DNA of 32,000 nt. It comes from Pyrodictium abyssi (GTDB lineage Archaea > Thermoproteota > Thermoprotei_A > Sulfolobales > Pyrodictiaceae). Shown one piece after another: positions 623-27,205 of this stretch; positions within the stretch are counted from its first letter, which is position 1, and every line of letters begins with the position of its first letter. The stretch covers positions 2,190,001 through 2,222,000 of the forward strand of contig NZ_AP028907.1 in assembly GCF_036323395.1 (NCBI RefSeq), in the 5' to 3' direction. The notes under the pieces were generated by a model. The model was not told the origin of the DNA and made no database searches. It saw only the letters and a program-made list of their open reading frames with translations. The position numbers were made by a program, and so were the translations under genes.

Positions 623-1063
623 CTACGGCGGCCCGTACTCAGAGACGTGCCTCGCCACGGGTTCTCGCCCTCTTAGCTGTCTTAGCAGCTTCTCGTCAGC
701 CGTATAGAAGACAGTGCCAAGCCTCCTAGCCAGCACGATGTAGTAGGCATCGTACACGGTGACCCCGTTGTCGATGGCATAGCCTAGAGCCTCCCTCGCG
801 AGCTCCCCGTCTACCTCCACGAACTCTACATCCATCTCGAGTAGGAGGCTGAAAGCCTCCCCAGCCTCCCCGGGTCCCATAACCCCTCTCACAACGTACT
901 TTCTCAGGGCGTTAGCGAGCTCCAGCAGCGCGTAGGATGGCGCGGCTACTGCAACCCTAGCGTCGAGGTGGTCGTTCAGGATAGCCTCTGCCTTGTCGCT
1001 GAACTCCTCCGGTACAAACCACTTGACGAGAACACTCGCGTCAACGACGACCCGCCGCGTCAT
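623..1063 (-). CDS. vapC: PIN-domain ribonuclease toxin VapC
   Basis: 146 aa. N-terminal VVVDASVLVKW supplies the first acidic PIN residue, followed by SYALLELANAL and C-terminal DAYYIVLARRLG..FYTADEKL. There is a 4-nt overlap with the upstream small antitoxin ORF. Confidence 0.85.
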   Translation of the reverse strand: MTRRVVVDASVLVKWFVPEEFSDKAEAILNDHLDARVAVAAPSYALLELANALRKYVVRGVMGPGEAGEAFSLLLEMDVEFVEVDGELAREALGYAIDNGVTVYDAYYIVLARRLGTVFYTADEKLLRQLRGREPVARHVSEYGPP

Positions 1064-1626: not shown

Positions 1627-2089
1627 CCGCGGCTAGGTGCCCCTTAGCGGGTGCTAGGACTATTAGGTTCCGGGTCCGGGTTGTGGGTTGTGCTCTGGAG
1701 CCTTGGACCATGCTGAGCTCCGGGAGGACGAGATGCTGGAGGTTATTGCTATACTTCTCGGGGCAATGAGAGAGTACTCGACGATGCTGGTGGTGACCCG
1801 CTGCTGTTGAAGGGGATTCCGAGGAAGATTAACCCGGAGCTAGTCTAGGCAAAACACGCCAGGTCAAGATAGGAAAAACCACGGCATCAATCACCCTCAC
1901 TCGAGCCATGGACAGAGGAGCCAAAAATACAGCCCTAGCAGAGCAATGCCCGAGGAACACTAGTACCGTCTTCCGTGTCGAGTCGAATGTCAAAAACGTT
2001 TATTTTCTTCATATGGTAAACTTGCGGAAATCATGGTATTCTGACGTAAATCCAAAAATACCTCTTTAGGTTTAGGAGGACCGCTAAGC

Positions 2090-2635
2090 CTAGTACTCAC
2101 TCGAGAGCAATACAGTTACAGTGAATCCCGTTCTCAAAGTATGATCCAGTTTAACCATTATACTATCTATCTCCTTAGGAAGTTTTGATGTATAAGCGGC
2201 AACCGTATAAACTTCTCCACACGCGTACTCATAAATATACGCTCCATCGGTTACAGTGCCCTTATCAATGTCCATTCCATTTACTTCATAGCCGCATATA
2301 CTGCCATTTTTGACTGCATTCTCTAAGCTTCTTACGTAGTTCAGTATCTCTTTAACATCAGTATATATAAATAGCATGTCGGGCTGCGGGTATTTATCTT
2401 GAAGTATGTCTTCACGATTTGACTTTGATCCAAGGTGCGTTATAGCTATCCTGAGCACTTCGACGAGCGGTTCTGGGCATGTATATTCTCCACTAGTCCA
2501 GCTGGATAGAAGGCCTAATGCTCTAGCAGCACCTATCGTTATATACCAGGTTGCGTTCCCTACGATGAGCTGTGTGTTCTCTTCATTAATTGGTTGTGCC
2601 TCTCGAAGAGCCTTATGTAGGCACTCCTCGGGCAA
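2090..2635 (-). CDS. hypothetical protein in a low-GC island, possibly 5-prime frameshifted
   Basis: 181-aa ORF with a TTG start in AT-rich DNA unlike its surroundings. The frame stays open upstream (GEATWAHAIFYR) without a start codon, and a second frame (from ATG 2742, MTYRILSSSHEINLSYSRAEAVILV) abuts it. This suggests one longer gene broken near 2680. I recognise no family. Confidence 0.45.
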   Translation of the reverse strand: MPEECLHKALREAQPINEENTQLIVGNATWYITIGAARALGLLSSWTSGEYTCPEPLVEVLRIAITHLGSKSNREDILQDKYPQPDMLFIYTDVKEILNYVRSLENAVKNGSICGYEVNGMDIDKGTVTDGAYIYEYACGEVYTVAAYTSKLPKEIDSIMVKLDHTLRTGFTVTVLLSSEY

Positions 2636-2845
2636 ACGATAAAATATTGCGTGTGCCCATGTAGCTTCACCAATATAACAGCCTCAGCGCGGGAGTAACT
2701 TAGATTTATTTCATGAGAAGAGGATAATATACGGTACGTCATCCGGCCAGTTTTTCGAGGATTAGCAATCGTCTTGGAGGCAGTTGTATAGCTTTTCACA
2801 GCTCGCCAATATTTCGAGCAGCTGGTAGGCATTATGTATCGTTCT

Positions 2846-2888
2846 GGCTAGCATGCCTTGGCGCTCATTCTGCTAGCAAATGCTAGCA
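2846..2888. repeat. cluster of GCTAGC-core palindromes
   Basis: GGCTAGCATGCC at 2846-2857 and TGCTAGCA twice (2871-2878 and 2881-2888, 10 bp apart). The cluster sits between the low-GC ORF and the vapC stop. Confidence 0.5.
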
Positions 2889-2955
2889 TTGCGAGATTCG
2901 TCATTACATATTGGACACTGGGTTACTGACTTGTTGTGATTCGCCTGGCTTGGGG

Positions 2956-3435
2956 CTAGATAATTCTCTCTAATTCTTTCTCCGGCACAGCTCTTAATAG
3001 TAGTGCTCTGGCTCCAATCCTGGATGCATGCATACTCATAGCCTCGTCGTCTGTGACTAGTATGGCGTTTCTCCTCCAGGCTAGGGCTATTATGTAGGCG
3101 TCGAAGCCCGAGCTCCCGGTCCTTATTGCTACCTCTAGTGCGTCTTCCCGGATCTCCTCCTCGAATACGATAGTGTAGTCTCTCGTGGATTTGAGGGACT
3201 CGACTATCTCTCTTGCCAGCTTCTCGCCCGCTAGCCTGGAGATTACGGCTCCCGTCTCGACTATAACGGGGTACGGTAGCAGAACCTCGTACTCCCTGTC
3301 TCTAAGCAGCCTTATGACCATTCTAGCCTTGCGGTGTGTCTCCAGCTCCCTGCGGTAGATGTTGCTGGGGAGCCAGCGGCCTGGCCTCAGTACGGACTTC
3401 ACGAGCACGCTACTATCTAGTACCACCTTTCCCAA
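2956..3435 (-). CDS. vapC: PIN-domain toxin VapC
   Basis: 159 aa with VVLDSSVLVKS at the N-terminus, VIVETGAVISRL, and GFDAYIIALAWRRNAILVTDDEAM. It overlaps the upstream antitoxin by 19 nt. Confidence 0.85.
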   Translation of the reverse strand: MGKVVLDSSVLVKSVLRPGRWLPSNIYRRELETHRKARMVIRLLRDREYEVLLPYPVIVETGAVISRLAGEKLAREIVESLKSTRDYTIVFEEEIREDALEVAIRTGSSGFDAYIIALAWRRNAILVTDDEAMSMHASRIGARALLLRAVPEKELERII

Positions 3436-3784: not shown

Positions 3785-5794
3785 CTATGCTGTTCGGTGG
3801 CCTATTGCTGCTGGTGCGCTTACTAGGCCTAGGTAGCCTCCGTGGACTGCGTAGCTGGAGAGTACTGCGGCGTAGTCGGCGTAGAATGGTAGTCGTTTGC
3901 GGTACTCGGTGGGGAGTTGTAGCTCTTCTGCGGTCTTGCGGTCTGTCCTCATGTATATCTTGGTGTTGGCTAGTGTGACGACGAGTGGGCTGAGGTCGCT
4001 CTCCCTGTGAGTGGATAGTAGCAGGGATATTCCGCGGCTCCTGCCTAGCCTTGCTAGGCGCTCTAGGGTTCTCCGGAGCATCTCTGCGTACTCGCCGCCG
4101 CCCCGTGGGAAGAAGAGGTGGGCTTCGTCGACGACTAGGAGTATCCGGCCGGGCCCGGTGCCTTTCTCTGCTGTTGATGCTAGGCTACGGAGGAGCTGGT
4201 AGCCTAGCAGCACTTTTACCGCTGTGGGGTCGCTCTCCGACCTTGTGGCCGCGTAGCCTAGGTCGAGCATGAGCGTATTCACGCCGAGGCTTTCCATGGC
4301 GTTGGCTAGCTCGTTGTAGTCTATCCCTGGTGCCGCCGTGTTTATCACCCCGGTGTTTGCGAGGACTCGTAGCCGGCGGAGCAGGTGCTGTAGCGTCGCC
4401 TCGGGCGCGTAGCGCTTAGCCTCCTGTATCTTGCGCTCTATGCAGTAGGCGAGCTTGGCGGGGTGTGGAATGCGGCAGCCCAGTGAGTCTACTAGCGCTG
4501 GGAGGGCTTCGCGGGCGCGCTCTGTCATGTAGGGGTCTATCTCCGATAGCTGCCTGGGATCTCTCAGCTCTATGCCCCGAGGCGCGATATACACGCTCAC
4601 TGTCTTCTCGCCGCCGCACTCCACGGTGTACCAGGCCTCGTAGACGTATGGGGCGCCGGTGTCGTGGACCACGGGGCCGTCTACGAGCCTGCATTCTCCC
4701 CCGGCGCGGCTGTACATGGCTCTGGCTATCCCGGCCAGGGTCTCGGCGTACCGTTTTGCCTCGCTCTGGGGGCTGCAGTTGTCGCCGGGGCAGGGTATGA
4801 CCACGAGGCCTCTTAGAGAGGGCCCCTTCACGGGCTCACCGGGCTCGGCCTCTACGCCGTATAGCCTGAGTATGCCCGCCCTCTTCGCGTCCACCAGGAC
4901 CCGGGGGATGTAGCCCGGGAAGAGCCCGGCTACGTAGTCCTGGTTAGCGTCGAGCACTACTATGTGGACGTCTCCTCCCTGGGTCCTTGAGACGCTGTAG
5001 AGGATGTTCTTTACGAGGCTCGTCTTACCGCTCCCCGTGGTCCCGGTCACGAGGATGTGCTTCACCATCACGCTCCAGGGGAGGGACACGGGCACCGGTG
5101 AGCCGGCTGCGAGGTACGGCCGGTCCATTATCGCTAGTGCTCCTAGCGTGACATCGCCCCGTGGGGCTATGAGCGCTGAGAGGACCGCGGGGTGCGGTAT
5201 CGCTACGGGGCTGCCCGGGTCTATGGGGAAGGATGGGGCTAGCTTCTCCGCCTCCGCGAGGATCCCGGCCAGCTCCTCTACGCTGCGTGCACGCGAGGCC
5301 TCCTCTAGCCCCTCCCGGCCCAGGTGGACTGCCAGCACGGGCCTAACATAGACCCGGATGCTGACAACGTTGCCCGCTACTGTTATCGGGCTGGGCCTGG
5401 CGAGCGGTATGCTCGTGAGAGGCTCCTGCGCACCGAGCACCCCCGGTATGCTGGAGCGCGTAGACTCGGCCACCTCGCCGAGGACCACGCTCGCCGTCTT
5501 TAGGTCTACTATGGCGTAGAAGTAGCCCGGCGAGAACACCTCAGGGTGGCTATGGGCTAGCCCTATCCAGGCCTCTGGCGCCAAATCCACGGGGACCAGG
5601 TCGGAGCCTATATCCCGGGACGCCGAGACGCGGCCTACGAGCCAGCCGTACTGCTGGAGCGTCTCGACCCCAAGCTCCGCCGCGAGGAGCCTTGCAAGCC
5701 TCTCCGCCGCCTCCACCATCTCCTCGTAGCGCTGGACTATGCGGCGGCGCTCGTTCACCAGCCTCTCGAAGCCCGCGCCCTCGCCGCCGGTCAC
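3785..5794 (-). CDS. HerA/DUF87-like (FtsK-HerA superfamily) P-loop ATPase
   Basis: 669 aa. Walker A is HILVTGTTGSGKTSLVKNIL and Walker B is RILLVVDEAHLFFP, followed by RLGRSRGISLLLSTHRESDL (HerA-type arginine/sensor region). There is a roughly 240-aa N-terminal domain before the P-loop. The GTG start overlaps the stop of the upstream ORF (GTGA, 5791-5794). Confidence 0.85.
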   Translation of the reverse strand: MTGGEGAGFERLVNERRRIVQRYEEMVEAAERLARLLAAELGVETLQQYGWLVGRVSASRDIGSDLVPVDLAPEAWIGLAHSHPEVFSPGYFYAIVDLKTASVVLGEVAESTRSSIPGVLGAQEPLTSIPLARPSPITVAGNVVSIRVYVRPVLAVHLGREGLEEASRARSVEELAGILAEAEKLAPSFPIDPGSPVAIPHPAVLSALIAPRGDVTLGALAIMDRPYLAAGSPVPVSLPWSVMVKHILVTGTTGSGKTSLVKNILYSVSRTQGGDVHIVVLDANQDYVAGLFPGYIPRVLVDAKRAGILRLYGVEAEPGEPVKGPSLRGLVVIPCPGDNCSPQSEAKRYAETLAGIARAMYSRAGGECRLVDGPVVHDTGAPYVYEAWYTVECGGEKTVSVYIAPRGIELRDPRQLSEIDPYMTERAREALPALVDSLGCRIPHPAKLAYCIERKIQEAKRYAPEATLQHLLRRLRVLANTGVINTAAPGIDYNELANAMESLGVNTLMLDLGYAATRSESDPTAVKVLLGYQLLRSLASTAEKGTGPGRILLVVDEAHLFFPRGGGEYAEMLRRTLERLARLGRSRGISLLLSTHRESDLSPLVVTLANTKIYMRTDRKTAEELQLPTEYRKRLPFYADYAAVLSSYAVHGGYLGLVSAPAAIGHRTA

Positions 5795-6231
5795 CCTGCA
5801 GCCCCCTGCTCGGCCATAGATAGGTGTGTCTCGTAGCTGAAGCCGACAGCGTGGCGTAGAGTGTTGTAGAGGAGCCTAGCACTATGTCTGGAGACTCTGC
5901 GCGCGGCATAGTCAGCCAGCCCTACCGGGATGGGGACCGGCGCGGCGTCGGGGTAGCCCATGAGCTCTACTATACCCGCCAGCAGCTCCAGGTCGGCGTC
6001 GAGCATAGCTCGGAACCTCAGCCTATCAAAGCCTACACCACCACTGCCGTCCACGGTGACGCCGCATCCCTTCACGGGGGCAGCCGGCATCTCTACCCGT
6101 AGGAGCACCCGGCCGTGGAGCGGCGACGGGACGTAGAGGTAGTAGCTCCTCTTGACCAGCACCTTCTGTGTAAACACTCTCCCGAAGCCCTGGAGCCCCA
6201 GCACATCAGCAACGCTGCGGCCGTCACGCAC
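5791..6231 (-). CDS. hypothetical 146-aa protein translationally coupled to the HerA-like gene
   Basis: ORF with a GTG start, native codon usage and a stop overlapping the HerA-like start. It sits 78 nt downstream of the NurA-like gene. I recognise no motif. Confidence 0.55.
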   Translation of the reverse strand: MRDGRSVADVLGLQGFGRVFTQKVLVKRSYYLYVPSPLHGRVLLRVEMPAAPVKGCGVTVDGSGGVGFDRLRFRAMLDADLELLAGIVELMGYPDAAPVPIPVGLADYAARRVSRHSARLLYNTLRHAVGFSYETHLSMAEQGAAG

Positions 6232-6309
6232 AGACGGCTGGTAGGCGTCCAGCCTGCTCCCGTGGCTGCCCCCGGGGCTTGTGAGTCCCCGTAGCGCTGG
6301 GCCCCATCC

Positions 6310-7209
6310 TCACCGTACTCGACCTCGGCAGGGTGGCTGCAGCGCTACGGGGACCTGGTAGCCGCCCACCCACCTCCGGGGCCCGTAGGCGCGGACAAGC
6401 ATCTCGACGAGCTGGACATCCCTCGAGGCATACAGCCCGCTTGCCTCCACCTTTCTCCTCCACTCTTTATCCGCCACTAGAGCCGAGGCGAGGAAGCGGC
6501 TCCTCTCGAGCCTCTTCACGACTCCTACTAGCCTTACGCCGTGCTGCAGCGCCTCCTCTATCAGCTTGCCCCGGTCGAGCACATTGACGAGGTAGCTTAG
6601 AGCATAGTAGGCCTTCAGCACAGTATAGGGCGAGAGGGCAGCGGGGCCGCCGCTCTGGGCTACCTGCACGAAGAGCCCCGGCGTGTTGAATACCGGGCCG
6701 TCTACGAGCACTAGGGAGCCGCCGGGGACCCAGCCTAGCAGCCATTCTAGCGCCCTATTCTCCAGCCACATCCTGTTCTCGTCGAGCATCGTCTGCCTAT
6801 TGAAGCCATTCCAGTAGTCTAGCTCGGCTATAACCCGGCAGTAGGCGGGCCTGCTTCCCCCGCTGCAGCCGGGTAGAAGCGAGGCGTAGACGCGCGGGTC
6901 AACTAGCGGCGAGTCGGCTACAAGGCCGCCGAACGACGCTGAGGCGGCGTAGCCTAGCCCTAGGCTGACCACGGGCTCCTGGCCTAGCTCGAGGCGGGGA
7001 AGGACACCGGTATCCGGGTAGGAGCCCACCAGTACTACACTGGATACGTGGGAGACGGCGACGCTGTAGACCCCTAGGAGGAGCGTTGTCGCTTCTAGCT
7101 GCTGGCTGCTGCCATCCAGCCCGTAGGCTTCTAGGCGGCCTGGCGGCTCGGGGAGCCGGGACCACACCACTCTGCCATGCGCCGCATCTTCGCGGTCCTC
7201 CTCCGTCAC
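6310..7209 (-). CDS. NurA-like nuclease
   Basis: 299 aa with LEAYGLDGSSQQLE (N-terminal DGS motif) and GGSLVLVDGPVFNTPG (second DG motif), followed by VRLVGVVKRLERS. The layout matches NurA-family nucleases. It is the first gene of the operon ending in the HerA-like ATPase. Confidence 0.6.
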   Translation of the reverse strand: MTEEDREDAAHGRVVWSRLPEPPGRLEAYGLDGSSQQLEATTLLLGVYSVAVSHVSSVVLVGSYPDTGVLPRLELGQEPVVSLGLGYAASASFGGLVADSPLVDPRVYASLLPGCSGGSRPAYCRVIAELDYWNGFNRQTMLDENRMWLENRALEWLLGWVPGGSLVLVDGPVFNTPGLFVQVAQSGGPAALSPYTVLKAYYALSYLVNVLDRGKLIEEALQHGVRLVGVVKRLERSRFLASALVADKEWRRKVEASGLYASRDVQLVEMLVRAYGPRRWVGGYQVPVALQPPCRGRVR

Positions 7210-7309
7210 GCCGGCGCCGCCTATGCTTGCTGGGCGTGGCTGGCTGGTAGAGGCTATGCGTAGCAGCTCGCCTGCGAGGCCCGCTATGTCCAGGAGTGTG
7301 GCAAGAGCT

Positions 7310-8287
7310 ATGACCGTGGTCTACTTCGTCCACAGCCTGACACAGTTCAGCCCAAGGCTCTGGCGCACACTAGGCCACCCATACGTGATGGTCTCCGCCG
7401 ACGACGCGGCCCGCGACCCCCAGAGAGCCGTCCAGCTCCTCAGAGGCCTCAACGTCATAGTGGACAGCGGCGGCTACCGGCTCATAAGCCGCGGGAGGCT
7501 GCCCAGCCCCGAGGAGGTCCTAGAGGTACAGCGGACGCTAGCCGACGAGGTGGGCGCAGAGCCCGTCGCGCTCGACACCCCGGTCCCCCACCCCCTAAGG
7601 GCGGGGGACGCCGACTTCCGCGCCGCAAACGAGGCCACGGCGAGAAACGCCCGGCTATGGGCCCGGGTATTCGGGGACCACTTCATCTACCCCCTCCACG
7701 CCCATACACCGGGCCAGCTCCGGGACGCCCTCCAGAGGCTCCGCCAAGCCGCCCCCACGGTCGAGGCCGTAGGGCTCGGAAGCCTAGCACCCCTCGCGCG
7801 CCACCGGCCAGCCCAGGCGCTGAGGCTAATAGCGTACGCGCGGAGCATGATAGACAAGCGCATCCACGTCTTCGGGGCCGGTAACAGCCTCCTCGCAGCA
7901 CTAGTGCTCCACAGGCTAGCAGACACGGCTGATACGAGTAGCCCGCTCCAGGACGCTCGCTACGGGCTAGCCCGGCACCCCAAGACACTAGCCATGACGC
8001 TCACAGCGCCCCGCCGCGCTCAGGGGAGACCGCGCGCAGAGCCACACGAGATAGCGGCGAAGTGCAGCTGCCCAGTCTGCAGGACCGAGCCAGAAGCTCT
8101 GGCAGAATGGGGCCGTAGAGGCCTCCTAGCCAGGACCGTTCACAACGCCTACCAGCTACTAGAAGTGCTAGAGGACCCCGAGAAGGCGGCAAAGCTGCTA
8201 GCGAGGCGGCCACAGCTAGCAGCTGCGCTGGCAGAGACCCGGCCTGGGAGAGGCTCCGTGGCTGCAGGGCTGCCCGGCAAGGCTTGA
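7310..8287 (+). CDS. tRNA-guanine transglycosylase (TGT) superfamily protein, short DpdA-like form
   Basis: Motifs are VIVDSGGYRLIS (TGT DSGG motif), HVFGAGNSLLAALVLHRLADTADTSSP (GxG...D.xD region), and CSCPVC followed about 22 aa later by VHNAYQLL (CxCxxC...H zinc site plus HN motif). There is no PUA or other C-terminal domain. The longest ORF starts at 7223 but would nearly abut the divergent NurA-like start, so ATG 7310 (MTVVYFVHS) is preferred. Confidence 0.7.
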   Translation: MTVVYFVHSLTQFSPRLWRTLGHPYVMVSADDAARDPQRAVQLLRGLNVIVDSGGYRLISRGRLPSPEEVLEVQRTLADEVGAEPVALDTPVPHPLRAGDADFRAANEATARNARLWARVFGDHFIYPLHAHTPGQLRDALQRLRQAAPTVEAVGLGSLAPLARHRPAQALRLIAYARSMIDKRIHVFGAGNSLLAALVLHRLADTADTSSPLQDARYGLARHPKTLAMTLTAPRRAQGRPRAEPHEIAAKCSCPVCRTEPEALAEWGRRGLLARTVHNAYQLLEVLEDPEKAAKLLARRPQLAAALAETRPGRGSVAAGLPGKA

Positions 8288-8739
8288 TAGTCTCCTCCCC
8301 GGCTTCCGTGGAGAGGGGCAGGCCTACTGTGCACGGGGAGCAGCTACGCTGCCTCGCCGGCGTGGCGTCGAGGTGGCGTCTCCGCTACCTGGTGGTCTTC
8401 GGGTCCCAGGCTAGGGGCTACGCGGGGCCTCACAGCGACTACGACGTGGCCGTCAAGGCCGGCAGGAGGCTAGCCTTCGTGGAGCGTGGCCTCCTCTACA
8501 CGGAGCTAGAGAGGTGTGTAGACGGGCGGCTCGACCTACTGTTCATAGACGACTGGGACCCCATAGCCGTGTGGGAGGCGCTAGCACACGGGAGGCTAGT
8601 CTACCACTGCGGGGCCCAGTGCCTCCGCGAATACTACGAGGACCTCGCCCGAGCCATAGACGAGGTAGCAGACCTAGAACCCATCCTGGTGCTCTTCCGG
8701 AGGGAGATGCAGCGTGCCCTCGCCGGGCCTAGTAGCTAG
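8284..8739 (+). CDS. mntA: minimal nucleotidyltransferase (MNT, MntA-like antitoxin)
   Basis: LRYLVVFGSQARGYAGPHSDYDVAV is the GSxxRG...DxD nucleotidyltransferase motif. The TTG start overlaps the TGT-like stop (TTGA), though a later GTG near 8329 is also possible. A HEPN partner follows. Confidence 0.8.
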   Translation: MIVSSPASVERGRPTVHGEQLRCLAGVASRWRLRYLVVFGSQARGYAGPHSDYDVAVKAGRRLAFVERGLLYTELERCVDGRLDLLFIDDWDPIAVWEALAHGRLVYHCGAQCLREYYEDLARAIDEVADLEPILVLFRREMQRALAGPSS

Positions 8740-9139
8740 GGTGACGCGGGCCCGGAGGAGCCTCGAGAGGCTTAGGAGGCTGGCCTCGATGCCCTGGGAG
8801 GAGTACAGCGTAGACGAGGACGCGCAGGCGCTAGCGGAGAGGCACCTCCACATACTCCTGGAGTCCATCCTCGACCTCGCAGCGTTCATCGCCGCCCGCC
8901 GCGGCCTGGCATGGAGCCCGACCTACCGCGGTGTAGTCGAGGCCCTCGTGGCCAGCGGCCTCGTGCCAGAGGAGCTAAGGAGCCTCGCCCTCTCAGCAGC
9001 CGGCATGAGGAACATACTGGTCCACGGCTACGCGGAGGTACGGCACGACATAATCTACGAAGTACTCCGACACGACCTAGACCGGCTAGAAAGACTCCTC
9101 GACACGCTGTGGAGGGAAGCAGAGAACCTAGACCCCTAG
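8714..9139 (+). CDS. hepT: HEPN-domain (DUF86, HepT-like) toxin
   Basis: 141 aa containing RNILVHGY (Rx4H HEPN RNase motif) in a helical protein. It overlaps the MNT gene by 26 nt. Confidence 0.85.
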   Translation: MPSPGLVARVTRARRSLERLRRLASMPWEEYSVDEDAQALAERHLHILLESILDLAAFIAARRGLAWSPTYRGVVEALVASGLVPEELRSLALSAAGMRNILVHGYAEVRHDIIYEVLRHDLDRLERLLDTLWREAENLDP

Positions 9140-9658: not shown

Positions 9659-10255
9659 CTAGTCTCTGTGGTGGCGTGACATCTCTCTTAGTTTCTCGTG
9701 GAGCCTCTGCAGAGCCTCCTGGTGCTCTCTGGTCCACTTGCCCTGGCTCTCTAGCCTCGGCTTTACCTGCTCCTCGACTATCTCGGCTAGCTTGCCTAGG
9801 ATGGATGCGATGTCCCTTGCAGCCTCTCCGCGGTCTGGGTACTTGCTCAGCTCCCCGGAGGGGTCTGGGCCGTGGTACTGGTAGTCGTGGAGCTCGAGCG
9901 CTGTGCTGGTGAGGTGCGTGTAGTATGGCACCCCAGCGGCCTCCTCTACGAGCCTTGCTAGGGGCTTGAGCCGGCTGCTAGGCACCCGAGGTACCCCGAC
10001 CTCCTCTAGCCATTTCCTCTCCTTCTCGCCTAACATCTCTACTATCCTGTCCCTCTCTAGGGCTAGCAGCGCTGCTGTTAGCGCCCGCCACGCCTGGAAC
10101 GCCTTACCCGCAGCGTTCCTGGTGTAGCCCTCCTCGAGGAATCGTAGCGCTATCTGAGCTTCTAGGAGAGCTTCCAGTGCCCGGGCAGAGGCGTAGCCCA
10201 CTAGGTCTCGCCGGGGCTTGGGCAGGGGCTGCTCGAGTAGCGCTGCGGGGTTCAA
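9659..10255 (-). CDS. PaREP1-family (HEPN-related) protein
   Basis: 198-aa all-helical protein. LEEGYTRNAAGKAFQAWRALTAALLA and a later ALELHDYQYHG match the PaREP1 pattern (helical pair, then an aromatic/His segment) common in crenarchaeal accessory regions. Confidence 0.65.
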   Translation of the reverse strand: MNPAALLEQPLPKPRRDLVGYASARALEALLEAQIALRFLEEGYTRNAAGKAFQAWRALTAALLALERDRIVEMLGEKERKWLEEVGVPRVPSSRLKPLARLVEEAAGVPYYTHLTSTALELHDYQYHGPDPSGELSKYPDRGEAARDIASILGKLAEIVEEQVKPRLESQGKWTREHQEALQRLHEKLREMSRHHRD

Positions 10256-10274: not shown

Positions 10275-11306
10275 ATGGGTAGAGGGCTGCCTGGCTCCTA
10301 TAGTGTTGCCCCGCTAGAACACATGTACGTGGCGGTATCCAGGGGCTGGTTGTGGCGCTGTATTTATGTCTGGGCTAGTGTTTTGTCGCATTCTTTCCCG
10401 CCGGCTCCGCTGACGGGGGCTGCTGCCTTGGCCTTGGAGGCTGTGTTCTATGTCGCGCGGGTGGTGTTCCGGCCGCTGCGCCGGGTGGCGTTGACGGCGT
10501 GGAGCGGGGTGTACGCGGGCAGGGCTGTCTATGAGAGCCTCAACCGGGCCGGGATAGTGCTCGACCGGGGTGGATTGTTCCGGGTCTCCCCGGTCTACCC
10601 CCTGGGGTCCCGTGCCCCGGTGGGCGGGTTCCTGGCTCCAGGCGAGCGGTACTGGTTCCGGGCCGTGTTCTGGGGCGCTCCCGGCTCCGCTAGCGGGCAG
10701 CAGCTGGCTCGGGGCCTTATGGCGGGCCTTGGGCTGTGGACCCGGGAGCTTGTGGTGGAGGAGCTGAGCCTGGAGGAGAGGAGGGCCCGTCTGCCGGACC
10801 CCGGCGCGGGGGAGGGCGAGGCGGATGGCGAGCCGGTGGCGGCGCTGGTGCGGGTGCGGCACGGGCCCACATTCTACCGGTTCCACGGCGCTGTGGTCTC
10901 GTATCCTAGCCCCTGGAGGCTCGTGGCGAGCATCGCGCGGCGGCTGAGCCTGGCCACGGGGATCGACTACCGGCCACTGGCGCGCCGGCTGCAGCCGTGC
11001 CTAGAGCTGGCTGTGGACCGGACGAGGCGGGTGAGGATACGGCTCAGCCACGGTGCGGAGCCGCCGGTGTTCACCGGCGAGGCTCTCTACCACGCTGTGT
11101 GCCCCAGGGGCCTGGCCTCGGCGCTCCAGAGGCTCCTCGAGGCCGGCGTCTACACGGGTGCTGGGGCGAGCCCCGGCCTCGGCCTAGGCGAGATACACGC
11201 CGTGGACCTGGGGCCTCCGCGGCACCGGGCCCCGCCGGCCCTCGAGCCCTGGACCGAGGAGCAGGAGGAGCCCAGCGGCGCCGAAAAGGAGGCCCGGCCA
11301 GCATAG
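10275..11306 (+). CDS. Cas6/RAMP-like protein (orphan)
   Basis: A C-terminal glycine-rich loop (YTGAGASPGLGLGEIH) is preceded by strand-like segments (VRVRHGPTFYRF, VRIRLSHGAEPPVFTGEALYHAV). FRVSPVYPLG resembles the Cas6 xFxxSPL segment. The longest ORF (TTG 10218) overlaps the divergent PaREP1 gene, so ATG 10275 or 10323 is more plausible. That this is a CDS is likely; the family call is tentative. Confidence 0.45.
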   Translation: MGRGLPGSYSVAPLEHMYVAVSRGWLWRCIYVWASVLSHSFPPAPLTGAAALALEAVFYVARVVFRPLRRVALTAWSGVYAGRAVYESLNRAGIVLDRGGLFRVSPVYPLGSRAPVGGFLAPGERYWFRAVFWGAPGSASGQQLARGLMAGLGLWTRELVVEELSLEERRARLPDPGAGEGEADGEPVAALVRVRHGPTFYRFHGAVVSYPSPWRLVASIARRLSLATGIDYRPLARRLQPCLELAVDRTRRVRIRLSHGAEPPVFTGEALYHAVCPRGLASALQRLLEAGVYTGAGASPGLGLGEIHAVDLGPPRHRAPPALEPWTEEQEEPSGAEKEARPA

Positions 11307-11591: not shown

Positions 11592-11867
11592 GTGCTGCTG
11601 GTGACTGCTGTTGCCGTGCTAGACGCTTTGACCAGGGAGGCTAGGCTGTTGAGGGCTAAGCTAAGAGTCTACGATGCTAGGATACGCGAGCTAGAGGAGA
11701 AGCACAGAATGAGCTCTGACGAGTTCCTCGCCGGGTTCGAGAGAGGAGAGCTGGGGGACGACGAGGACTACTTCCTCTGGTGGAGCTACCTGAGGGCCAG
11801 GGCAACGATAGCTGAGAGGCTAAAGGAGCTTGAGAAGGAGATACGGAAGCTTCAGGGACTACGCTAG
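11592..11867 (+). CDS. small helical antitoxin-like protein upstream of the TumE-like gene
   Basis: 91 aa with ...SSDEFLAGFERGELGDDEDYFLWWSYLRARATIAERLKELE. Its 3-prime end overlaps the next ORF. It is similar in pattern to the 15347..15571 product. Confidence 0.6.
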   Translation: MLLVTAVAVLDALTREARLLRAKLRVYDARIRELEEKHRMSSDEFLAGFERGELGDDEDYFLWWSYLRARATIAERLKELEKEIRKLQGLR

Positions 11868-12228
11868 CTGGTTCCACGACGTTATCAGCTCGTTTGGAGA
11901 GGCCATTGTAGACTATAGCATATCCATCGAGGAGGTTACTCCCTCGGAGGGGCTCATCCGGGGAGTCATAGTGTTCCTCGACGGCTCTAGGCTCCGTTTC
12001 CTCGAGTACGTCTCTATCACCGGAGGCAACGCGGCCAGGCTCAAGTATAGGTATCACTACGAGGACCCGGATGGCAGGCTGGTCTTCCGCTACGATAATG
12101 CGCCGCACCACCCCGAGGTGGAGACGTTCCCGCACCACAAGCATCTGGGCGACGGCAGGGTAGTCGCATCCATTGCTCCCTCGATAAGGAGCGTCCTGGA
12201 GGAGATACTAGACCTCATACCGGTCTAG
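11830..12228 (+). CDS. TumE/DUF6516-like putative toxin
   Basis: 132 aa with LDGSRLRFLEY, YRYHY and FRYDNAPHHPEVETFPHHKH. This is the conserved xDNAPHH...FPHHKH signature I associate with the DUF6516/TumE family. Confidence 0.6.
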   Translation: MRRRYGSFRDYASWFHDVISSFGEAIVDYSISIEEVTPSEGLIRGVIVFLDGSRLRFLEYVSITGGNAARLKYRYHYEDPDGRLVFRYDNAPHHPEVETFPHHKHLGDGRVVASIAPSIRSVLEEILDLIPV

Positions 12229-19785: not shown

Positions 19786-20297
19786 AGCCGCACACCCTTA
19801 ACCACCGCTCTCCTCCTTACCCTGCTCTGGAGTTCTTGCCTGCTCCCGGTATTTCAGTGAGCCTATGCAACTGCTCATCGTTTAGCCTCACGTAGCCTCT
19901 CTGCTCATGTTGATGCCAGGGTTGATACTGGGATGCTGCTGTGGCTATAGCCTGGTTGGAGGAGCGTGACCGCTGGAGGCTATTAGGCTCCGTATCCCGG
20001 TGGACGCTGTTAGGGAGTTGTTCGGCTATAGGGGGGTTAGCTTGTCTAGGAGTATTGACGGGTGCTGGACAAGTATTCAGAGAAAGTAACTAAGACCTAA
20101 AATATTTAGGATAAAGCTCTTTTAATGGTACTTGGCGTGAGGTCAGCCTTACATGCCTCATTCACGAGGTTGACAACAATTAGATAGTCGCATGCTAGTG
20201 ATCAGAACGCTAACCTAAGCACCAAACACTAACGGCAACAACGAAGATAGAGGTCCATACAGTAACAGTTACCGGGACACCCGCATCAACCCATACA

Positions 20298-20534
20298 GTG
20301 CCGAGAAACACCTACAACTACGAAATTCTAGAGTACTTCCCTATCGATGAAGGACGCTACGCTCTATACATGTTCGTGGACACCATGAATAACATGAGTG
20401 CCACCTACCAAATAACTATACAACAACGAGCCTACACCAGGGCAGGCCTAATCTTCCTGATGACTCTCGCTAAGATAAACGGGTCAGGAAGACCGCTGAA
20501 CTCAGCATTGTACGGGAGACTCAACTCGCCTTGA
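20298..20534 (+). CDS. hypothetical protein (low-GC island)
   Basis: 78-aa ORF with a GTG start and AT-rich composition. No motif recognised. Confidence 0.3.
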   Translation: MPRNTYNYEILEYFPIDEGRYALYMFVDTMNNMSATYQITIQQRAYTRAGLIFLMTLAKINGSGRPLNSALYGRLNSP

Positions 20535-20821
20535 AGCACTAAGACACCATGTACACCGACTACACCTAGTGTTCTTAGGCCTGTTATCCAGCTAGAGTCC
20601 TTGAAGGTCTAGCAAGTACGTAGTTGGCAGCCAACCCTATGGAGTCCTCAAGGCATCCTTGTTCGAAGCTGTAGCTGAGTAGGATATCGACGCGAGGAGT
20701 TCTAGAACTCTAGGGTCTTTGGGATTAGGCAAAGCACAACATACTGCCCCTCCCCCTTTAAGCTCTGCGGTAGGCTATTAGCCTGGAGAGCTACCTAAAG
20801 CAGTCTTGGAGGCGCTCTGTT

Positions 20822-21130
20822 TTGTGCTTCTGGACTCCAGAGATAACAGTTGTGAAAAGGGATGGTAGTAAGGAGCCCTTCATGTACGAGAAGGTCGTCG
20901 TGTCCTGTCTAAAAGCTGGCGCGACGCTGGATGCTGCCCGGAGAATCGCTACAAAGGTGCTTGCTAGGCTTATCTCTGAGAACCGGAAGGAGGTTACTGC
21001 AAAGGAACTCACCCGCTGGATACTAGAGCTGCTTCGCGAGGAGAATGAGGAGTGGTACCGTAACTGGATAGTCTTCGACAGAGCTGTCAAGAGGAGGAGG
21101 ACCGAGGAGGAGCTAAAGTCTCCCCAGTAG
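20822..21130 (+). CDS. ATP-cone domain protein
   Basis: ITVVKRDGSKEPFMYEKVVVSCLKAGATLDAARRIATKV...VTAKELTRWILELL is the ATP-cone pattern (V.KRDG..E.F...K......AG). The protein is about 100 aa and stand-alone. Confidence 0.7.
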   Translation: MCFWTPEITVVKRDGSKEPFMYEKVVVSCLKAGATLDAARRIATKVLARLISENRKEVTAKELTRWILELLREENEEWYRNWIVFDRAVKRRRTEEELKSPQ

Positions 21131-21371
21131 AGCCCATGTTTTTACTCTCCTCCCTCAACAATATCCGTAGGCAATCGATTATAGCCTCCCTGGACAAGGG
21201 CATGCCTATCCTAGACCCCCAACGGCCCTGAGGTATGAATGCTCTTACCGGAGCTTCATCGCAACGGATATCCATGGAGGAGAGTTGCTCCTCGACAACA
21301 TAGCATAGGGTCCGCCTTTTGGCTACTAGCTCTAGGCCAGCATTAGCATCTGTTCGTCTTCACCCATTCAA

Positions 21372-22208
21372 TTATATTAACCATGTCGTAGATCTTTTCT
21401 CGCAGTATTCTACTAGCAGGTCGAAGAGTCGCTTGTACCGCTCGGCTTCTCGCTGGAAGTAGAGGACGTTTTCCAGCCTGGCATTGGCCCTGTCTACGAG
21501 CCCTATTATCTTTGAGAGATAGCCGTCTGGAGCCGAGACGTCTATCACTAGTTCCTCGATATCATGCTCTAGTTCTACGCTGTTTAGCCTTATAAGCCCG
21601 TGTAGCAGCTCGTGGATGGCTAGGTCAAGTACGTGGCTCTCCCCATGGAGATCGTTGACGTAGACTGCGGTGACGGGGTTCTCATCGTCGAAGTAGAGCA
21701 TAGTCCCGAAGGACATGCCGGGCATGGGGTTGAAGCCGTAGACTACGTAGAGCTTCGTAAAGAACCGTTTAAACCCAAATACCTTCTCTATATAGCTGAT
21801 TATCTTGTCTTTCTTTCTCCGGTATAGATTGCTAACTCTTTCGCCTATATCAGCAAAGATTGCCCTAACTTCGCCCCATCTATGTATGCTGATGGCCTTT
21901 AACTCGTTTAGGATAATGTCGACTTCTCTGTCGGAGGTTGATGCTATTCCCGCCAGCTCTGTGAACAGCTTGTTCCACAAGTTGCTTCTCTCGATACAGT
22001 ATGATACGTGGAGTAGCGGCCCAAACAGCTGGCGTAGAGAACATGGGGTATCGACCGGACGGGCGAATATGGGATGTGAATCAAATCGTAAATAGAGGCG
22101 GCCAGGTACGCCTCCTTGCTGACGACGGGTATGAGCTCCATATTCCTGGTTCCTCTCTACTACACGCTGCCTCCGGCAACGTCCTTTGTTCTTATAAAAT
22201 GCTTTCAC
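21372..22208 (-). CDS. HExxH putative zinc metalloprotease-like protein (low-GC); N-terminus uncertain
   Basis: Contains KLYVVYGFNPMPGMSFGTMLYF...LDLAIHELLHGLIR (HExxH). The upstream part of the long ORF is Arg-rich, whereas a second frame from 22141 (MELIPVVSKEAYLAASIYDLIHIPYSPVRSIPHVLYA) looks more protein-like. The gene therefore either starts internally or carries a frameshift near 22035. Confidence 0.55.
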   Translation of the reverse strand: MKAFYKNKGRCRRQRVVERNQEYGAHTRRQQGGVPGRLYLRFDSHPIFARPVDTPCSLRQLFGPLLHVSYCIERSNLWNKLFTELAGIASTSDREVDIILNELKAISIHRWGEVRAIFADIGERVSNLYRRKKDKIISYIEKVFGFKRFFTKLYVVYGFNPMPGMSFGTMLYFDDENPVTAVYVNDLHGESHVLDLAIHELLHGLIRLNSVELEHDIEELVIDVSAPDGYLSKIIGLVDRANARLENVLYFQREAERYKRLFDLLVEYCEKRSTTWLI

Positions 22209-22309
22209 AGCGTACTAGTACCCCACCATGCGGTAGTGTAGTGCTAGGAAGCGTGCGGCGCCAGAGCCCCGGAGCTGGTTGCTGTGAATTGTGCTCGTTG
22301 GGGCTGGCT

Positions 22310-22757
22310 TTACGGGATTGTTCTTAGCCAGGGTATTCTCTTGAAGTCCTCGTCGAAGGTGAGGATAGCGTCTATGCCGTAGTGCCTGCATGTTGATGCT
22401 ATTACTGCGTCGCTTGGTGTCAGTTTGTAGTTCTCCATAATCTCTAGTAGTTGTCTGGGCTCGGCGTAGTCCTGTAGTATGGTTATCCCTAGCTGCTCTA
22501 TGACATCTATTAGTGTCCATAACTTATCCATTGCAAAGTCTAGCCCGTGTACTGTAATGTGCCTCTTTACCCTGTCTAGCCTCCTTAGTCCTAGACGCTC
22601 GAGTGCTAGCCTCCTTATGGATACATAACATTACCTCGTCGATAACACGGATGGAGGTTGCTAGGTCTCTGTGCTGCGTGAGGAGTTGCGCAGCTTTATC
22701 GGAGTACTCGCTTTCAAAGATATAGTAGACCAGCACATTCGAGTCAACAAACTTCAA
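22310..22757 (-). pseudogene. vapC: vapC (PIN) with one frameshift
   Basis: The N-terminal ORF (22524..22757) reads MKFVDSNVLVYYIF...RVIDEVM, then turns to junk. The other frame continues SIRRLALERLGLRRLDRVKRHITVHGLDFAMDKLWTL...LTPSDAVIASTCRHYGIDAILTFDEDFKRIPWL (22310..22531 ORF and upstream). The break is near 22615-22635. Confidence 0.75.
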
Positions 22758-22778
22758 ACCAAGCCACCGCCCCTGCTA

Positions 22779-22994
22779 CTAGAAGCTCTCAAGCTCCGCC
22801 TCAAGGAGCAGCTCGTCGAGCTCCTTCTTCGAAGCCCTGCCCATGAATCCCTTGTATCTCTCGACTATCCTTCTTCTTTCCTCGTCTGTAAGTATAATGG
22901 CTATTAGTATCTCTTCCCCTTCCTGTAGCTGTAGGGGCTCTAGTGGCTTAAGTACGCCCCCCTCATAGCGGGCACGTATAGTTTTCAGAGCCAT
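22779..22994 (-). CDS. vapB: DUF104-family antitoxin
   Basis: MALKTIRARYEGGVLKPLEPLQLQEGEEILI is the DUF104 signature. The gene is intact and lies upstream of the broken vapC. Confidence 0.85.
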   Translation of the reverse strand: MALKTIRARYEGGVLKPLEPLQLQEGEEILIAIILTDEERRRIVERYKGFMGRASKKELDELLLEAELESF

Positions 22995-23299
22995 GCGGGG
23001 TCCCTAAAGTAGTGTACTTACTGAAGTCCTTTTAGCTCTTTAGCTCTTCTATAGACGAGCCAGGCTACCCGGAGCACATGGGGGAAGCCTTATGATAGGC
23101 TTCTACTTTACGGCTCCGCGGGCGTTCTTTAAGACTGCGAGCTAGGGTGTCATGTTCAAGGCTTCTATGCACGATACCACACGGCCATCTAATGGTGCAT
23201 TAATGCTAGGCTTAACGTGTCTTGGCTTGCCGGGTGTAGTGGTATAAGTGGGGTTTAGCGTGTCTCTATTGGCTAGTGGGATGGACGAGTTTGAGTACT

Positions 23300-25893: not shown

Positions 25894-26238
25894 GCAAGAA
25901 TCCGCAGGAGTCCTCTGAATCCCGGCGGACCCGCCAAGCAATGTCTTCTCCTATTACATCCTATTACGTTAGATTGTACGAGAGTAATAATGGTTAGCTG
26001 TTCTCTAGCCTAGAAATTCAGTTCTTACTACCTCTTCCTTCAACTTAGTGGCTTCATTATACGCTATTGATATCACTATGGTCTGATTAGCTTCTCCCTC
26101 ACACCCGCTATGCCACATATTAGCTTGAGAAACTACATTGATGAAACTAAGCCATACTACTAAGTATCGGGGCTATATTTCTCTCCAGGTAATGCTAATT
26201 AGCTACATTACATAATGTGCTTCTACATTGTGAGTCCT

Positions 26239-26678
26239 TTATGTTCCTTTCACTGTTTTTAGCCAGGGGACTCTTCCAAAGTCTTCATCAAAGGTTGCTA
26301 TATTCTCTATACCGTAGGCTCTGCATGTAGCTGCTATCAAGGCATCATTTGGTAGTAATTTATACTTCGTCATATACTCTATCAAAGTATCGATACCTAT
26401 GCTAGTCGGTAAATGCTCGAAACATGTGAATAAGGGGTACACATCATGCCATAGTAGCTCTTTAACCTCATCTGTGTATTTGACTTATGTATTTTCTGAG
26501 CCTATACCTAGAAACATTAAGAGCCAGCCTTAAGTACCCGTAAACAACCTCGCTAACCACAACATCATTTATGTATCCTTTCCACTCGCCACGCTCAACC
26601 GCATCTATGAGTTTCTTAGCTTCCACACTACCGGCAAGATACTTGAGAAAGACGTTAGAGTCAAAAGAACACCCTCAT
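26239..26678 (-). pseudogene. vapC: vapC (PIN) with at least two frameshifts
   Basis: ATG 26678 gives MRVFF then TGA. Removing one T from the TTTT run (plus-strand AAAA 26663-26666) restores MRVFFDSNVFLKYLAGSVEAKKLIDAVERGEWKGYINDVVVSEVVYGYL.... A further frame change leads into the C-terminal ORF 26239..26442 (LLPNDALIAATCRAYGIENIATFDEDFGRVPWL). Confidence 0.7.
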
Positions 26679-26892
26679 TCTCAATCTCCTCGATAACCTT
26701 GTCGATGTCCTCGGGCTTCAAGTCAGGTTTCCTGCGGAGAAGGACGCCAAATACGTGAGAGGGTGCTCTACGGATAATGATCTCGATTTCTTCTCCCTCC
26801 CTGAGGTCTAGTTTCTCGAGAGGCTTTAGCACCCCTTTCTCATACCTCGCACGGATAACTCTAGACAACCTAGTTCTCACCTGCTTTCGCAT
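26605..26892 (-). CDS. vapB: DUF104-family antitoxin (C-terminally extended by read-through into the vapC remnant)
   Basis: VIRARYEKGVLKPLEKLDLREGEEIEIII is the DUF104 signature. At 95 aa the ORF is about 20 aa longer than its relatives and runs into the decayed vapC. Confidence 0.8.
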   Translation of the reverse strand: MRKQVRTRLSRVIRARYEKGVLKPLEKLDLREGEEIEIIIRRAPSHVFGVLLRRKPDLKPEDIDKVIEEIENEGVLLTLTSFSSILPVVWKLRNS

Positions 26893-27205
26893 TTTTTACC
26901 TATATAACCGGCTAGCCTCTGTCTCACTTCAAGAAACTTCTCCAGGTTATCTCTCATAAAAGTTTGACAAAGGACAAGCCTACCCCCGAGGTGGCTAGTT
27001 CTCCTTCACGGGTTCAGACCATCCTATATGGTGTGGCCATGTTTATTCCTTCTGCTTCATTCGGGTACTCCGGGGTTCTATGGACCCGGCAGGCCCGCCT
27101 GGTTCTCCTGATGAACTTGGGCTTCCTAGCGCTCATGTCTACGGCCTGAACTGTATGTAGTAATTATGTAGTACGTGTTAGACTCATACACCCTAGGTAG
27201 CCGTC

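Follow-up and report, generated by a model that had tools for sequence, protein, structure and literature searches.

A TGT-superfamily protein as the third gene of a Cas-type HerA-NurA module in Pyrodictium abyssi: a possible DNA-guanine transglycosylase

Here, we consider a gene of Pyrodictium abyssi that encodes a short protein of the tRNA-guanine transglycosylase (TGT) superfamily. It lies at 7310..8287 on the + strand of the window, that is, of the whole 32,000-nucleotide stretch of DNA analysed (contig NZ_AP028907.1, positions 2,190,001 to 2,222,000), and it comes from a TGT-superfamily clade that has been recruited as the third gene of a Cas-type HerA-NurA module. We take the protein to be an archaeal DpdA-like DNA-guanine transglycosylase working with HerA and NurA, and would put the probability of this reading at about one in two. 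The most informative facts about the gene are its linkage to herA-nurA and its CRISPR-Cas setting. The first-pass annotation, made from the letters of the window alone, mentioned neither of them, nor the start at 7310, nor the local damage described below.

Linkage of the TGT-like gene to herA-nurA and cas genes

In every cellular locus that we examined with its flanking DNA, a herA (~670 aa)-nurA (~490-540 aa) pair adjoins the TGT-like gene. These loci came from Pyrodictium delaneyi (L001/2), Pyrofollis (L003), a metagenome-assembled genome (MAG) of Desulfurococcales (L012) and five further sources (L004/5, L006/7, L008/9, L013 and L014/15). The identity of the TGT-like protein goes down to 38% in L014/15, and the identities of HerA and NurA fall in step with it, as would be expected of a co-inherited unit. 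The usual layout is divergent, with nurA and the TGT-like gene split by a spacer of 65-68 bp. This spacer and its two elements, GATATAAGG and GGTA(n)TACC, are conserved in L001, L003, L006, L011 (a 97%-identical metagenome contig) and L013, GATATAAGG being located ~30 nt upstream of the ATG of the TGT-like gene. We read both elements as putative divergent promoters of the nurA/TGT-like pair.

In five lineages (L001, L003, L004, L006 and L013), the trio is found amid type I-A cas genes and beside CRISPR arrays. More precisely, it stands between the I-A interference genes (csa5, cas7, cas5, cas8a, cas3' and cas3'') and either cas1/csa1/cas2/cas4 or a CRISPR array, frequently in convergent orientation to cas1. 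In P. delaneyi, the TGT-like gene is directly followed by a 54-repeat array and then by cas6. Elsewhere, no cas gene is recognisable near the trio: in L008 it is located beside PTH2/TruD, and in L014 beside pelota and phosphoribosyl pyrophosphate synthase. Overall, the TGT-like gene is a conserved third gene of the Cas-type HerA-NurA module. Pattern scans of genomes and metagenomes gave only one locus each (L012 and L013) and missed known carriers such as P. delaneyi, so that they are uninformative on distribution.

The two partners in the window are of the CRISPR-linked kind and not the pair that acts in double-strand-break repair. Both match the PADLOC 'Type III coevolved' models (HerA at 1.7e-31, NurA at 1.2e-4), and HerA stays far below the cut-off of the HerA models for double-strand-break repair. 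Cas-linked HerA-NurA is an established accessory pair for which a role in adaptation has been proposed, and in Thermoproteales csm6 is its third gene (PMC3396285, PMC3973734, PMC6546367). The nurA-csm6-herA loci of Thermoproteales offer a close comparison: there, too, a pair of this kind is embedded in I-A/III cas loci and tightly joined to a third gene. However, the third gene there encodes the CARF protein Csm6, while here it encodes a TGT-fold enzyme. No transglycosylase partner of Cas HerA-NurA is mentioned in PMC3396285, PMC3973734, PMC6546367 or other searchable literature. CRISPR-linked HerA-NurA has been catalogued since 2012 without a known function, and a strictly co-inherited enzyme of predictable chemistry provides a testable handle on it.

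Protein, active site and place in the superfamily

The open reading frame (ORF) at 7223..8287 (+) is real, and its longest reading gives 354 aa; the residue numbers used throughout refer to this reading. The true start is probably the ATG at 7310, because the homologues begin at the M30 position in the 17-sequence family alignment, because residues 1-28 have a predicted local distance difference test score (pLDDT) below 50 in the AlphaFold2 model, where the TGT fold is confident from residue ~30, and because the upstream part lies on the strand opposite the conserved 5' end of the nurA coding sequence. Indeed, the segment 7223..7309 (+) has no protein conservation: its + strand reading departs from P. 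delaneyi, whereas its - strand reading (TLLDIAGLAGELLRIAS...) is nearly identical to it. The first 29 codons are thus probably a spurious 5' extension, and the coding sequence at 7310..8287 (+), recognised from homologue starts, a Pfam TGT match of 26.3 bits over the span, the fold and the invariant residues, yields a protein of ~325 aa. The earlier estimate of 326-354 aa is corrected accordingly.

The translation contains DSGG (aa 81-84, nt 7463-7474), LDTP (aa 117-120), HVFGAGN (aa 215-221, nt 7865-7885), DTADTSS (aa 234-240, nt 7922-7942), CSCPVC (aa 281-286, nt 8063-8080) and ARTVHN (aa 303-308, nt 8129-8146). The motifs that the first-pass annotation had listed (DSGG, GxG...D..D, CxCxxC...H and HN) are therefore all present where it implied. 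It had also stated that the PUA and C-terminal domains of ArcTGT are absent, and we found no PUA, C1/C2 or DUF5591 domain. The family proteins are strongly basic (isoelectric point ~10, net charge +11 to +22 per ~320 aa), with a charge density ~2x that of the TgtA of the lineage. As for their public names, P0002 is called 'tRNA-guanine(15) transglycosylase' in UniRef, while others appear as 'queuine/archaeosine tRNA-ribosyltransferase' or even 'muconolactone delta-isomerase' (JGI; cf. P0002, P0004 and P0011). Such names are inconsistent and probably wrong, and the practical upshot is that they mislead.

Sequence likeness to TGT is weak, but it reflects homology and not chance, and it is clear by structure. 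The Pfam TGT model PF01702 gives 25.9-26.3 bits, a borderline value against its gathering cut-off of 26.3. A phmmer search of the Protein Data Bank (PDB) returned Pyrococcus horikoshii ArcTGT (1iq8) as the sole match at 7e-5, and the family profile reaches the same entry at 4.8e-7 and no other solved structure. The AlphaFold2 model built from 17 sequences (pLDDT 84.1, predicted template modelling score 0.83) retrieves TGT structures in Foldseek at E~1e-10 and a TM-score of ~0.59; the PDB list is filled by entries of Z. mobilis TGT, so that DpdA and ArcTGT are not rankable by structure. In the alignment to 1iq8, D81, D118 and D237 pair with D95, D130 and D249 of ArcTGT, and C281/C283/C286/H307 pair with its Zn ligands C279/C281/C284/H307. 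Across the 17 aligned family sequences, none of these catalytic, base-binding and Zn-coordinating residues varies. The window protein thus has the TIM-barrel TGT fold, and with it the catalytic Asp pair, the Asp that binds the base and the CxCxxC...H Zn site that define the superfamily. Both catalytic Asp, which the first-pass annotation had asked to be checked, are kept. As judged from a dN/dS of 0.22 against P. delaneyi, the TGT-like gene is under purifying selection.

At the same time, the TGT-like protein is not the housekeeping archaeosine enzyme, because it is far below the cut-off of the ArcTGT model, lacks the lid and C-terminal domains, and has a relative that shares a chromosome with a separate TgtA. 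On TIGR00432 (ArcTGT), it scores 26.4-26.8 bits against a cut-off of 350, which is failed by a wide margin, while the true crenarchaeal TgtA P0150 scores 510 bits. The profile alignment to crenarchaeal TgtA spans only TgtA residues 84-346 of ~520. The VDSGG motif is preceded by 47 residues here and by ~85 in TgtA, so ~38 N-terminal residues, corresponding to the beta lid region, are gone. The window protein ends ~45 residues past the HN motif, and the C-terminal half of TgtA is wholly missing. A search with crenarchaeal TgtA found canonical enzymes of 520-530 aa (TGT + DUF5591) in Pyrodictium abyssi, Hyperthermus butylicus, Pyrolobus fumarii and Pyrofollis japonicus, the Pyrodictiaceae proteins carrying PF01702+PF17884. 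In Pyrofollis japonicus, the 529-aa TgtA P0301 is encoded on the same 2,005,174-bp chromosome as the family member P0008. Compared to ArcTGT/TgtA, then, the likeness lies in 1iq8 being the best sequence match among solved structures, in the one-to-one alignment of catalytic, base-binding and Zn residues, and in preQ0 as a plausible common substrate. The difference lies in size (~520-580 aa there, ~325 aa here), in the missing domains, and in a housekeeping gene context there as opposed to a defence context here.

The closest relatives of the window protein are few. A word-indexed search gave 16 of them at 53-97% identity, mostly of 306-347 aa, from Pyrodictium delaneyi, Pyrofollis japonicus and metagenomes of hot environments. 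When 1.84 billion cluster representatives were searched exhaustively with the profile, 378 proteins came up at E<1e-3, including 17 at E<1e-30. In a BLAST network drawn at 150 bits, the window protein falls into a 31-member cluster, apart from clusters c0, c2 and c4 and from several small ones. Cluster c0 (96 representatives at 50% identity, ~371 aa) is ArcTGT-like, keeps the N-terminal lid, lacks the C-terminal domains and includes proteins from Heimdall/Gerdarchaeota MAGs (e.g. P0040 and P0303; range P0031-P0166); its 80-92 bits on the ArcTGT model are far under the TgtA cut-off. Cluster c2 (17 representatives, ~303 aa) holds the top scorers on the DpdA model, at 51-67 bits against a cut-off of 200. 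Only cluster c4, the true ArcTGT, is above any curated cut-off. When the profile of the cellular clade was aligned with those of the other groups in hhalign, the score was highest for a viral subclade (473), followed by c0 (328), the DpdA-like c2 (242), c3 (235), c5 (218) and finally crenarchaeal TgtA (154), the most distant of the groups compared. In a simple and rough neighbour-joining (NJ) tree, from which the reference DpdA1-4 were left out, the 31-member cluster forms one clade in 61/100 bootstraps. By these sequence comparisons, the window protein falls in a small clade that stands apart within the TGT superfamily.

The earlier view that this is a catalytic-domain-only protein distinct from the archaeal tRNA enzyme is supported, and the BLAST network and hhalign set it apart from canonical ArcTGT. 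The further claim, that it is closer to DpdA than to tRNA TGT, holds in part. It is borne out by the short, lid-less architecture and by the nearest kin; nevertheless, the protein stands outside curated DpdA, in a clade of its own. Among viral sequences, 50,697 phage records gave no tblastn match to the window protein or to the viral relative P0029, and scans of IMG/VR with the family and c0 alignments were likewise negative.

Proposed function and rival explanations

We infer a DNA substrate from the gene context, a domain fusion and the relatives. In P0016, P0018 and P0019, which are also encoded beside herA-nurA, the TGT domain is fused to a C-terminal DUF6884 (Pfam 7.8e-21, PADLOC PDC-M57A). 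These fusions give weak matches to PADLOC DpdC at 1e-5, with the CxxxK and LSAxxG motifs intact. DUF6884 is described as a YaaA-like domain that binds DNA and flips bases (PMC11701544), and DpdC itself (DUF328/PF03883) is a member of the YaaA family that turns dPreQ0 into dADG in DNA (PMC12839542). In a Foldseek search of the PDB with a model of the fusion protein (pLDDT 87), the TGT domain outweighed the rest, and nothing was returned on DUF6884.

The relatives point in the same direction. A sister subclade of the cellular clade sits on virus-like contigs. In L020, the TGT-like gene of P0024 adjoins a stand-alone gene for DUF5591, the ArcS domain (L020:9399-10004 and L020:10001-10939), and in L018, a phage-like contig, P0029 is accompanied by a Q_salvage (PF10343) gene (L018:5279-6220 and L018:8001-8993). 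Both gene pairs are candidate pathways of 7-deazaguanine DNA modification, probably belonging to archaeal viruses; where viruses encode a TGT homologue in such company, it is a DpdA enzyme that inserts 7-deazaguanines into their DNA (PMC6884629). P0021 from Bathyarchaeota (L016/17) is encoded between a portal-like protein and an FtsK/terminase-like packaging ATPase. We had considered it a HerA-linked cellular member and rejected this, given that its ATPase is of the FtsK/terminase type and the upstream 417-aa protein fails the NurA profile; P0021 was moved to the viral group. The best structural matches in BFVD are 'queuine tRNA-ribosyltransferases' of phage and rudivirus origin. On plasmids, the only matches were haloarchaeal TGTs of the c0 type, encoded in a conserved block of a winged helix-turn-helix protein, a TGT (344 aa), a hypothetical protein and a 'BREX ATP-binding' protein. 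In Haloarcula sinaiiensis pHsi139 (L021, 6335-14827), this block is accompanied by QueE, QueD, an EVE domain protein and a PD-(D/E)XK nuclease, and in a Halomicrobium salinisoli plasmid (L022, 4744-12827) by a restriction endonuclease and a 1159-aa TGT fusion. The block looks like an archaeal Dpd-like DNA modification island. Together with the clade described here, these islands single out Pyrodictium delaneyi, Pyrofollis japonicus and Haloarcula sinaiiensis for direct DNA analysis.

A further line of evidence is likeness to DpdA, the enzyme of bacterial Dpd islands and of phages (7UI4; PMC10164549, PMC6884629). The Salmonella structure 7UI4 lacks the lid, reads the base with His181 and Asp130, and has Asp95/Asp256 as its catalytic pair (PMC10164549). 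The window protein agrees with it in these features. The N-terminal beta lid is missing in the family as in 7UI4, unlike in ArcTGT and bacterial TGT (bTGT). H159 aligns with His181 of 7UI4 (H201 in chain numbering), where ArcTGT and bTGT have no His, and an Arg at -3 from the Zn-binding His is common to the family and 7UI4 and absent from ArcTGT/bTGT. The strongly basic character of the family and its invariant Zn site, which Cap10 has lost along with nucleic-acid binding, likewise speak for DNA. Both DpdA and the window protein thus consist of the TGT catalytic domain alone, with its two catalytic Asp, the Asp that binds the base and the Zn site, and are devoid of the lid and the tRNA-binding domains; both reside in defence islands, and some relatives of the window protein carry a DpdC-like fusion. 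However, neither dpdB nor dpdD-K is near the gene here, HerA-NurA being the partners instead, adjacent preQ0 genes are missing, and the hosts are archaeal hyperthermophiles. Three relatives have the DUF6884 fusion, viral sister members are encoded beside DUF5591/Q_salvage genes, and HerA-NurA could replace the ATPase and nuclease functions.

Such evidence induces us to propose the following scenario. With DNA rather than tRNA as its substrate, the enzyme would replace guanine by a 7-deazaguanine, most likely preQ0, which the host already makes for archaeosine. The reaction would follow the double-displacement route of TGT, with D237 as the nucleophile forming a covalent sugar-enzyme intermediate and D81 as the general acid/base; D118, S82 and H159 would read the base, and Y85 would stack on it. 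In this way, the transglycosylase would write a self mark on host DNA, and HerA-NurA would degrade unmarked invading DNA from a position between the type I-A interference and adaptation genes. HerA may provide ATP-driven handling of DNA, as the ParB-like ATPase DpdB does in bacterial Dpd; bacterial DpdA needs DpdB (PMC10164549). In one subclade, the fused DUF6884, a YaaA/DpdC-like, base-flipping domain, would process the inserted base further. A precedent exists in BREX-related capture (BRC), a predicted defence system with HerA/FtsK and a TGT, in which the TGT has been suggested to label the cell's own DNA with 7-deazaguanine, DpdB and DpdC being dispensed with (PMC12839542); HerA/FtsK and a TGT are thus already paired there in a predicted self-marking device. 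The two are alike in joining a HerA/FtsK translocase with a TGT-family protein, but BRC has seven components of the PglZ/BrxC-like kind with an optional TGT, while here there are three genes, one of them for the nuclease NurA. PglZ, DUF6079/BrxC-like, STAND NTPase, GNAT and DUF4007 proteins are encoded neither in the window nor in the sister loci, so the module is not BRC. It is tempting, if rather doubtful, to go further and suppose that the self-marking enzyme, by reacting only with unmarked G sites, also flags the invader for HerA-NurA, and that the products feed I-A adaptation. If this were true, cells of hyperthermophilic Thermoproteota would carry 7-deazaguanine modification in their DNA, and the unexplained CRISPR-linked HerA-NurA pair would gain a mechanistic role.

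Several points weigh against a DNA-modifying, self-marking enzyme. The support of the clade is modest, 61/100 bootstraps in a tree without reference DpdA1-4. The window protein matches neither the PADLOC DpdA models (PDLC02807-10) nor the PADLOC TGT models, nor NCBIfam NF041059 (DpdA, cut-off 200), on which its relatives reach <=67 bits, and the family profile does not reach Salmonella DpdA 7UI4. No dpdB or que genes occur in the window or the sister loci; as the first-pass annotation had stated, folE, queC, queD and queE are absent from the window, at least among its ORFs of >=100 aa scanned with Pfam. With preQ0 genes not nearby, the base must come from the archaeosine pathway. We also considered His159 as a marker of DNA versus tRNA enzymes and rejected it, as c2, the most DpdA-like cluster, has Gln. 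The activity of all family members is predicted, the sensing of a modified base by HerA-NurA is hypothetical, and location within cas loci fits a CRISPR accessory role too. The module in the window is, moreover, damaged, and hence we draw no inference on activity in this genome. In the searchable literature, we found no report of 7-deazaguanine in the DNA of archaeal cells, whereas in bacteria and phages it is established.

A different role in the same setting would be that of a CRISPR-Cas accessory enzyme that attacks invader nucleic acid rather than marking self. It could, for example, engage 7-deazaguanine-modified viral DNA or G sites in unmodified DNA and leave a covalent or abasic lesion as an entry for HerA-NurA, and the fragments would feed adaptation by Cas1/Cas2/Cas4. 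In five lineages, the trio is flanked by the I-A interference module on one side and by the adaptation module or an array on the other, often convergently with cas1, which suits this role, although the trio also stands away from recognisable cas genes in L008 and L014. Insertion of 7-deazaguanine by TGT enzymes is essentially irreversible, which makes removal of a viral base unlikely, and the DpdC-like fusion suits writing better than attacking. On the other hand, the Cas-linked pair is already an established accessory one (PMC3396285, PMC3973734, PMC6546367), crenarchaeal rudiviruses encode TGT-like proteins, so that hosts meet such modifications (PMC6884629), and glycosylases acting against 7-deazaguanine DNA are a known defence class (bioRxiv 10.1101/2025.10.29.685425). 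On balance, we regard an attack on invaders as unlikely, though still worth serious attention. It is clearly less probable that the protein is a second RNA-guanine transglycosylase, i.e. a minimal ArcTGT paralogue acting on another position of tRNA, on CRISPR RNA or on other RNA. ArcTGT is indeed the only solved structure reached by the family profile, the biochemically ancestral TGTs all act on RNA, P0002 bears a tRNA-enzyme name, and the gene adjoins CRISPR arrays and cas6. Yet all tRNA-binding domains are missing, a canonical TgtA exists in the same (Pyrofollis) genome, the constant partners are DNA enzymes, the fused DUF6884 is a DNA-binding domain (PMC11701544), and the nearest kin are viral or located in defence islands.

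Least probable of all, and hardly to be expected, is a Cap10-like activity on a nucleobase-protein conjugate rather than a nucleic acid, by which HerA or NurA, say, would be deazaguanylated. Cap10 of type IV CBASS demonstrates that the TGT fold can be repurposed in defence for protein-linked 7-deazaguanine (bioRxiv 10.1101/2025.04.06.647259), and, like the window protein, it keeps the base-reading residues and the catalytic Asp in a TGT fold taken up by an immune system. In the broad set of relatives (alignment A2), 15/100 members match the PADLOC 'TGT' model PDLC00913, and the profile of this broader set, which gives 208 bits with 1iq8 and 92 bits with Salmonella DpdA 7UI4, reaches the chain deposited as Cap10 (9ntn) at 38.8 bits. 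The window protein itself, however, matches no PADLOC TGT model. Cap10 lost the Zn site together with nucleic-acid binding (bioRxiv 10.1101/2025.04.06.647259), and its nucleic-acid surface has been reshaped into a binding face for CdnD; in the present family the Zn site never varies, and a gene for QueC-like Cap9 or a CD-NTase is found in none of the loci.

State of the locus in the window

The copy of the module in the window is damaged. A three-way alignment with P. delaneyi and the L011 contig placed the junction of a 70-bp deletion between direct repeats of ~11 bp (TCyAGGAGTGT) at 7283..7299. The deletion takes out the whole nurA/TGT spacer with GATATAAGG and GGTA(n)TACC, the TTG start of nurA and its first 4 codons; the same spacer is intact in L011 (compare L011:1-100 and L001:9940-10030). 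The Cas-type nurA (5791..7299, - strand; Pfam NurA 5.4e-7) is thus left without its start codon and is further disrupted by an in-frame TGA at 6310-6312, which yields the ORFs 6310..7209 and 5791..6231. It is 72% identical to residues 5-520 of the 524-aa NurA of P. delaneyi, in a single frame through the TGA, which falls in a poorly conserved linker. We considered a compensating frameshift at this point and rejected it, as the other frames are unlike the P. delaneyi sequence; the stop stands. It could mark a pseudogene, a tolerated split or a sequencing error. The Cas-type herA (3785..5794, - strand), encoding 669 aa, is intact, overlaps the end of nurA by 4 nt, matches Pfam DUF87/HerA_C and PADLOC PDLC01055, and is 87% identical to HerA of P. 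delaneyi. Having lost the shared promoter region and the nurA start, and with a premature stop (TGA) in nurA, the module in the window is probably impaired or without function, provided that these defects are not errors of the assembly.

Irrespective of the role of the family in other genomes, the gene here may be a decaying remnant with no current function, and this seems to us a serious, if somewhat tentative, proposition. In its favour are the loss of the conserved promoter spacer and of the nurA start in the 70-bp deletion, the in-frame TGA, and the absence of the I-A cas genes and the CRISPR array that flank the trio in P. delaneyi. Of the cas genes, only cas6 (10428..11306, + strand; Pfam CRISPR_Cas6, 78.6% identity to Cas6 of P. 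delaneyi) is left in the 32-kb window, which contains neither a CRISPR array nor any copy of the P. delaneyi repeat. Against decay, the TGT-like ORF and herA are intact, and either lesion in the locus could have arisen in the assembly. Between the TGT-like gene and its L011 copy, where the spacer is intact, there are 11 non-synonymous and 12 synonymous differences, a dN/dS of 0.33 based on too few changes to decide.

Downstream, the start of an MNT gene (8284-8739, +; Pfam Polbeta 1.3e-10) overlaps the stop of the TGT-like gene and is followed by HepT (8714-9139, +; HepT-like 1.1e-21). A HEPN/NTP_transf_2 pair is found at the same place in L004. This toxin-antitoxin pair is a defence-island context and stands outside the HerA-NurA-TGT module. 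Toxin-type genes are dense in the window (623-1063, 2956-3435, 29124-29561, 30660-31058, 11830-12228 and 9659-10255), unusually so: four of these ORFs carry a PIN domain, and the others encode a TumE toxin and a PaREP1 family protein, which gives the region the look of a defence/toxin-antitoxin island. Patches of low GC content at 2001-3000, 20001-23000 and 26001-27000 (0.42-0.51 against ~0.65 elsewhere) contain few ORFs and almost no Pfam matches; no Rfam family was found in the window, and the patches are also free of tRNA. Finally, an ORF with an ATP-cone domain (20822-21130) and a PurP-type (DUF1246/DUF1297) gene (31102-31986) are ordinary housekeeping genes belonging to the flanks of the island.

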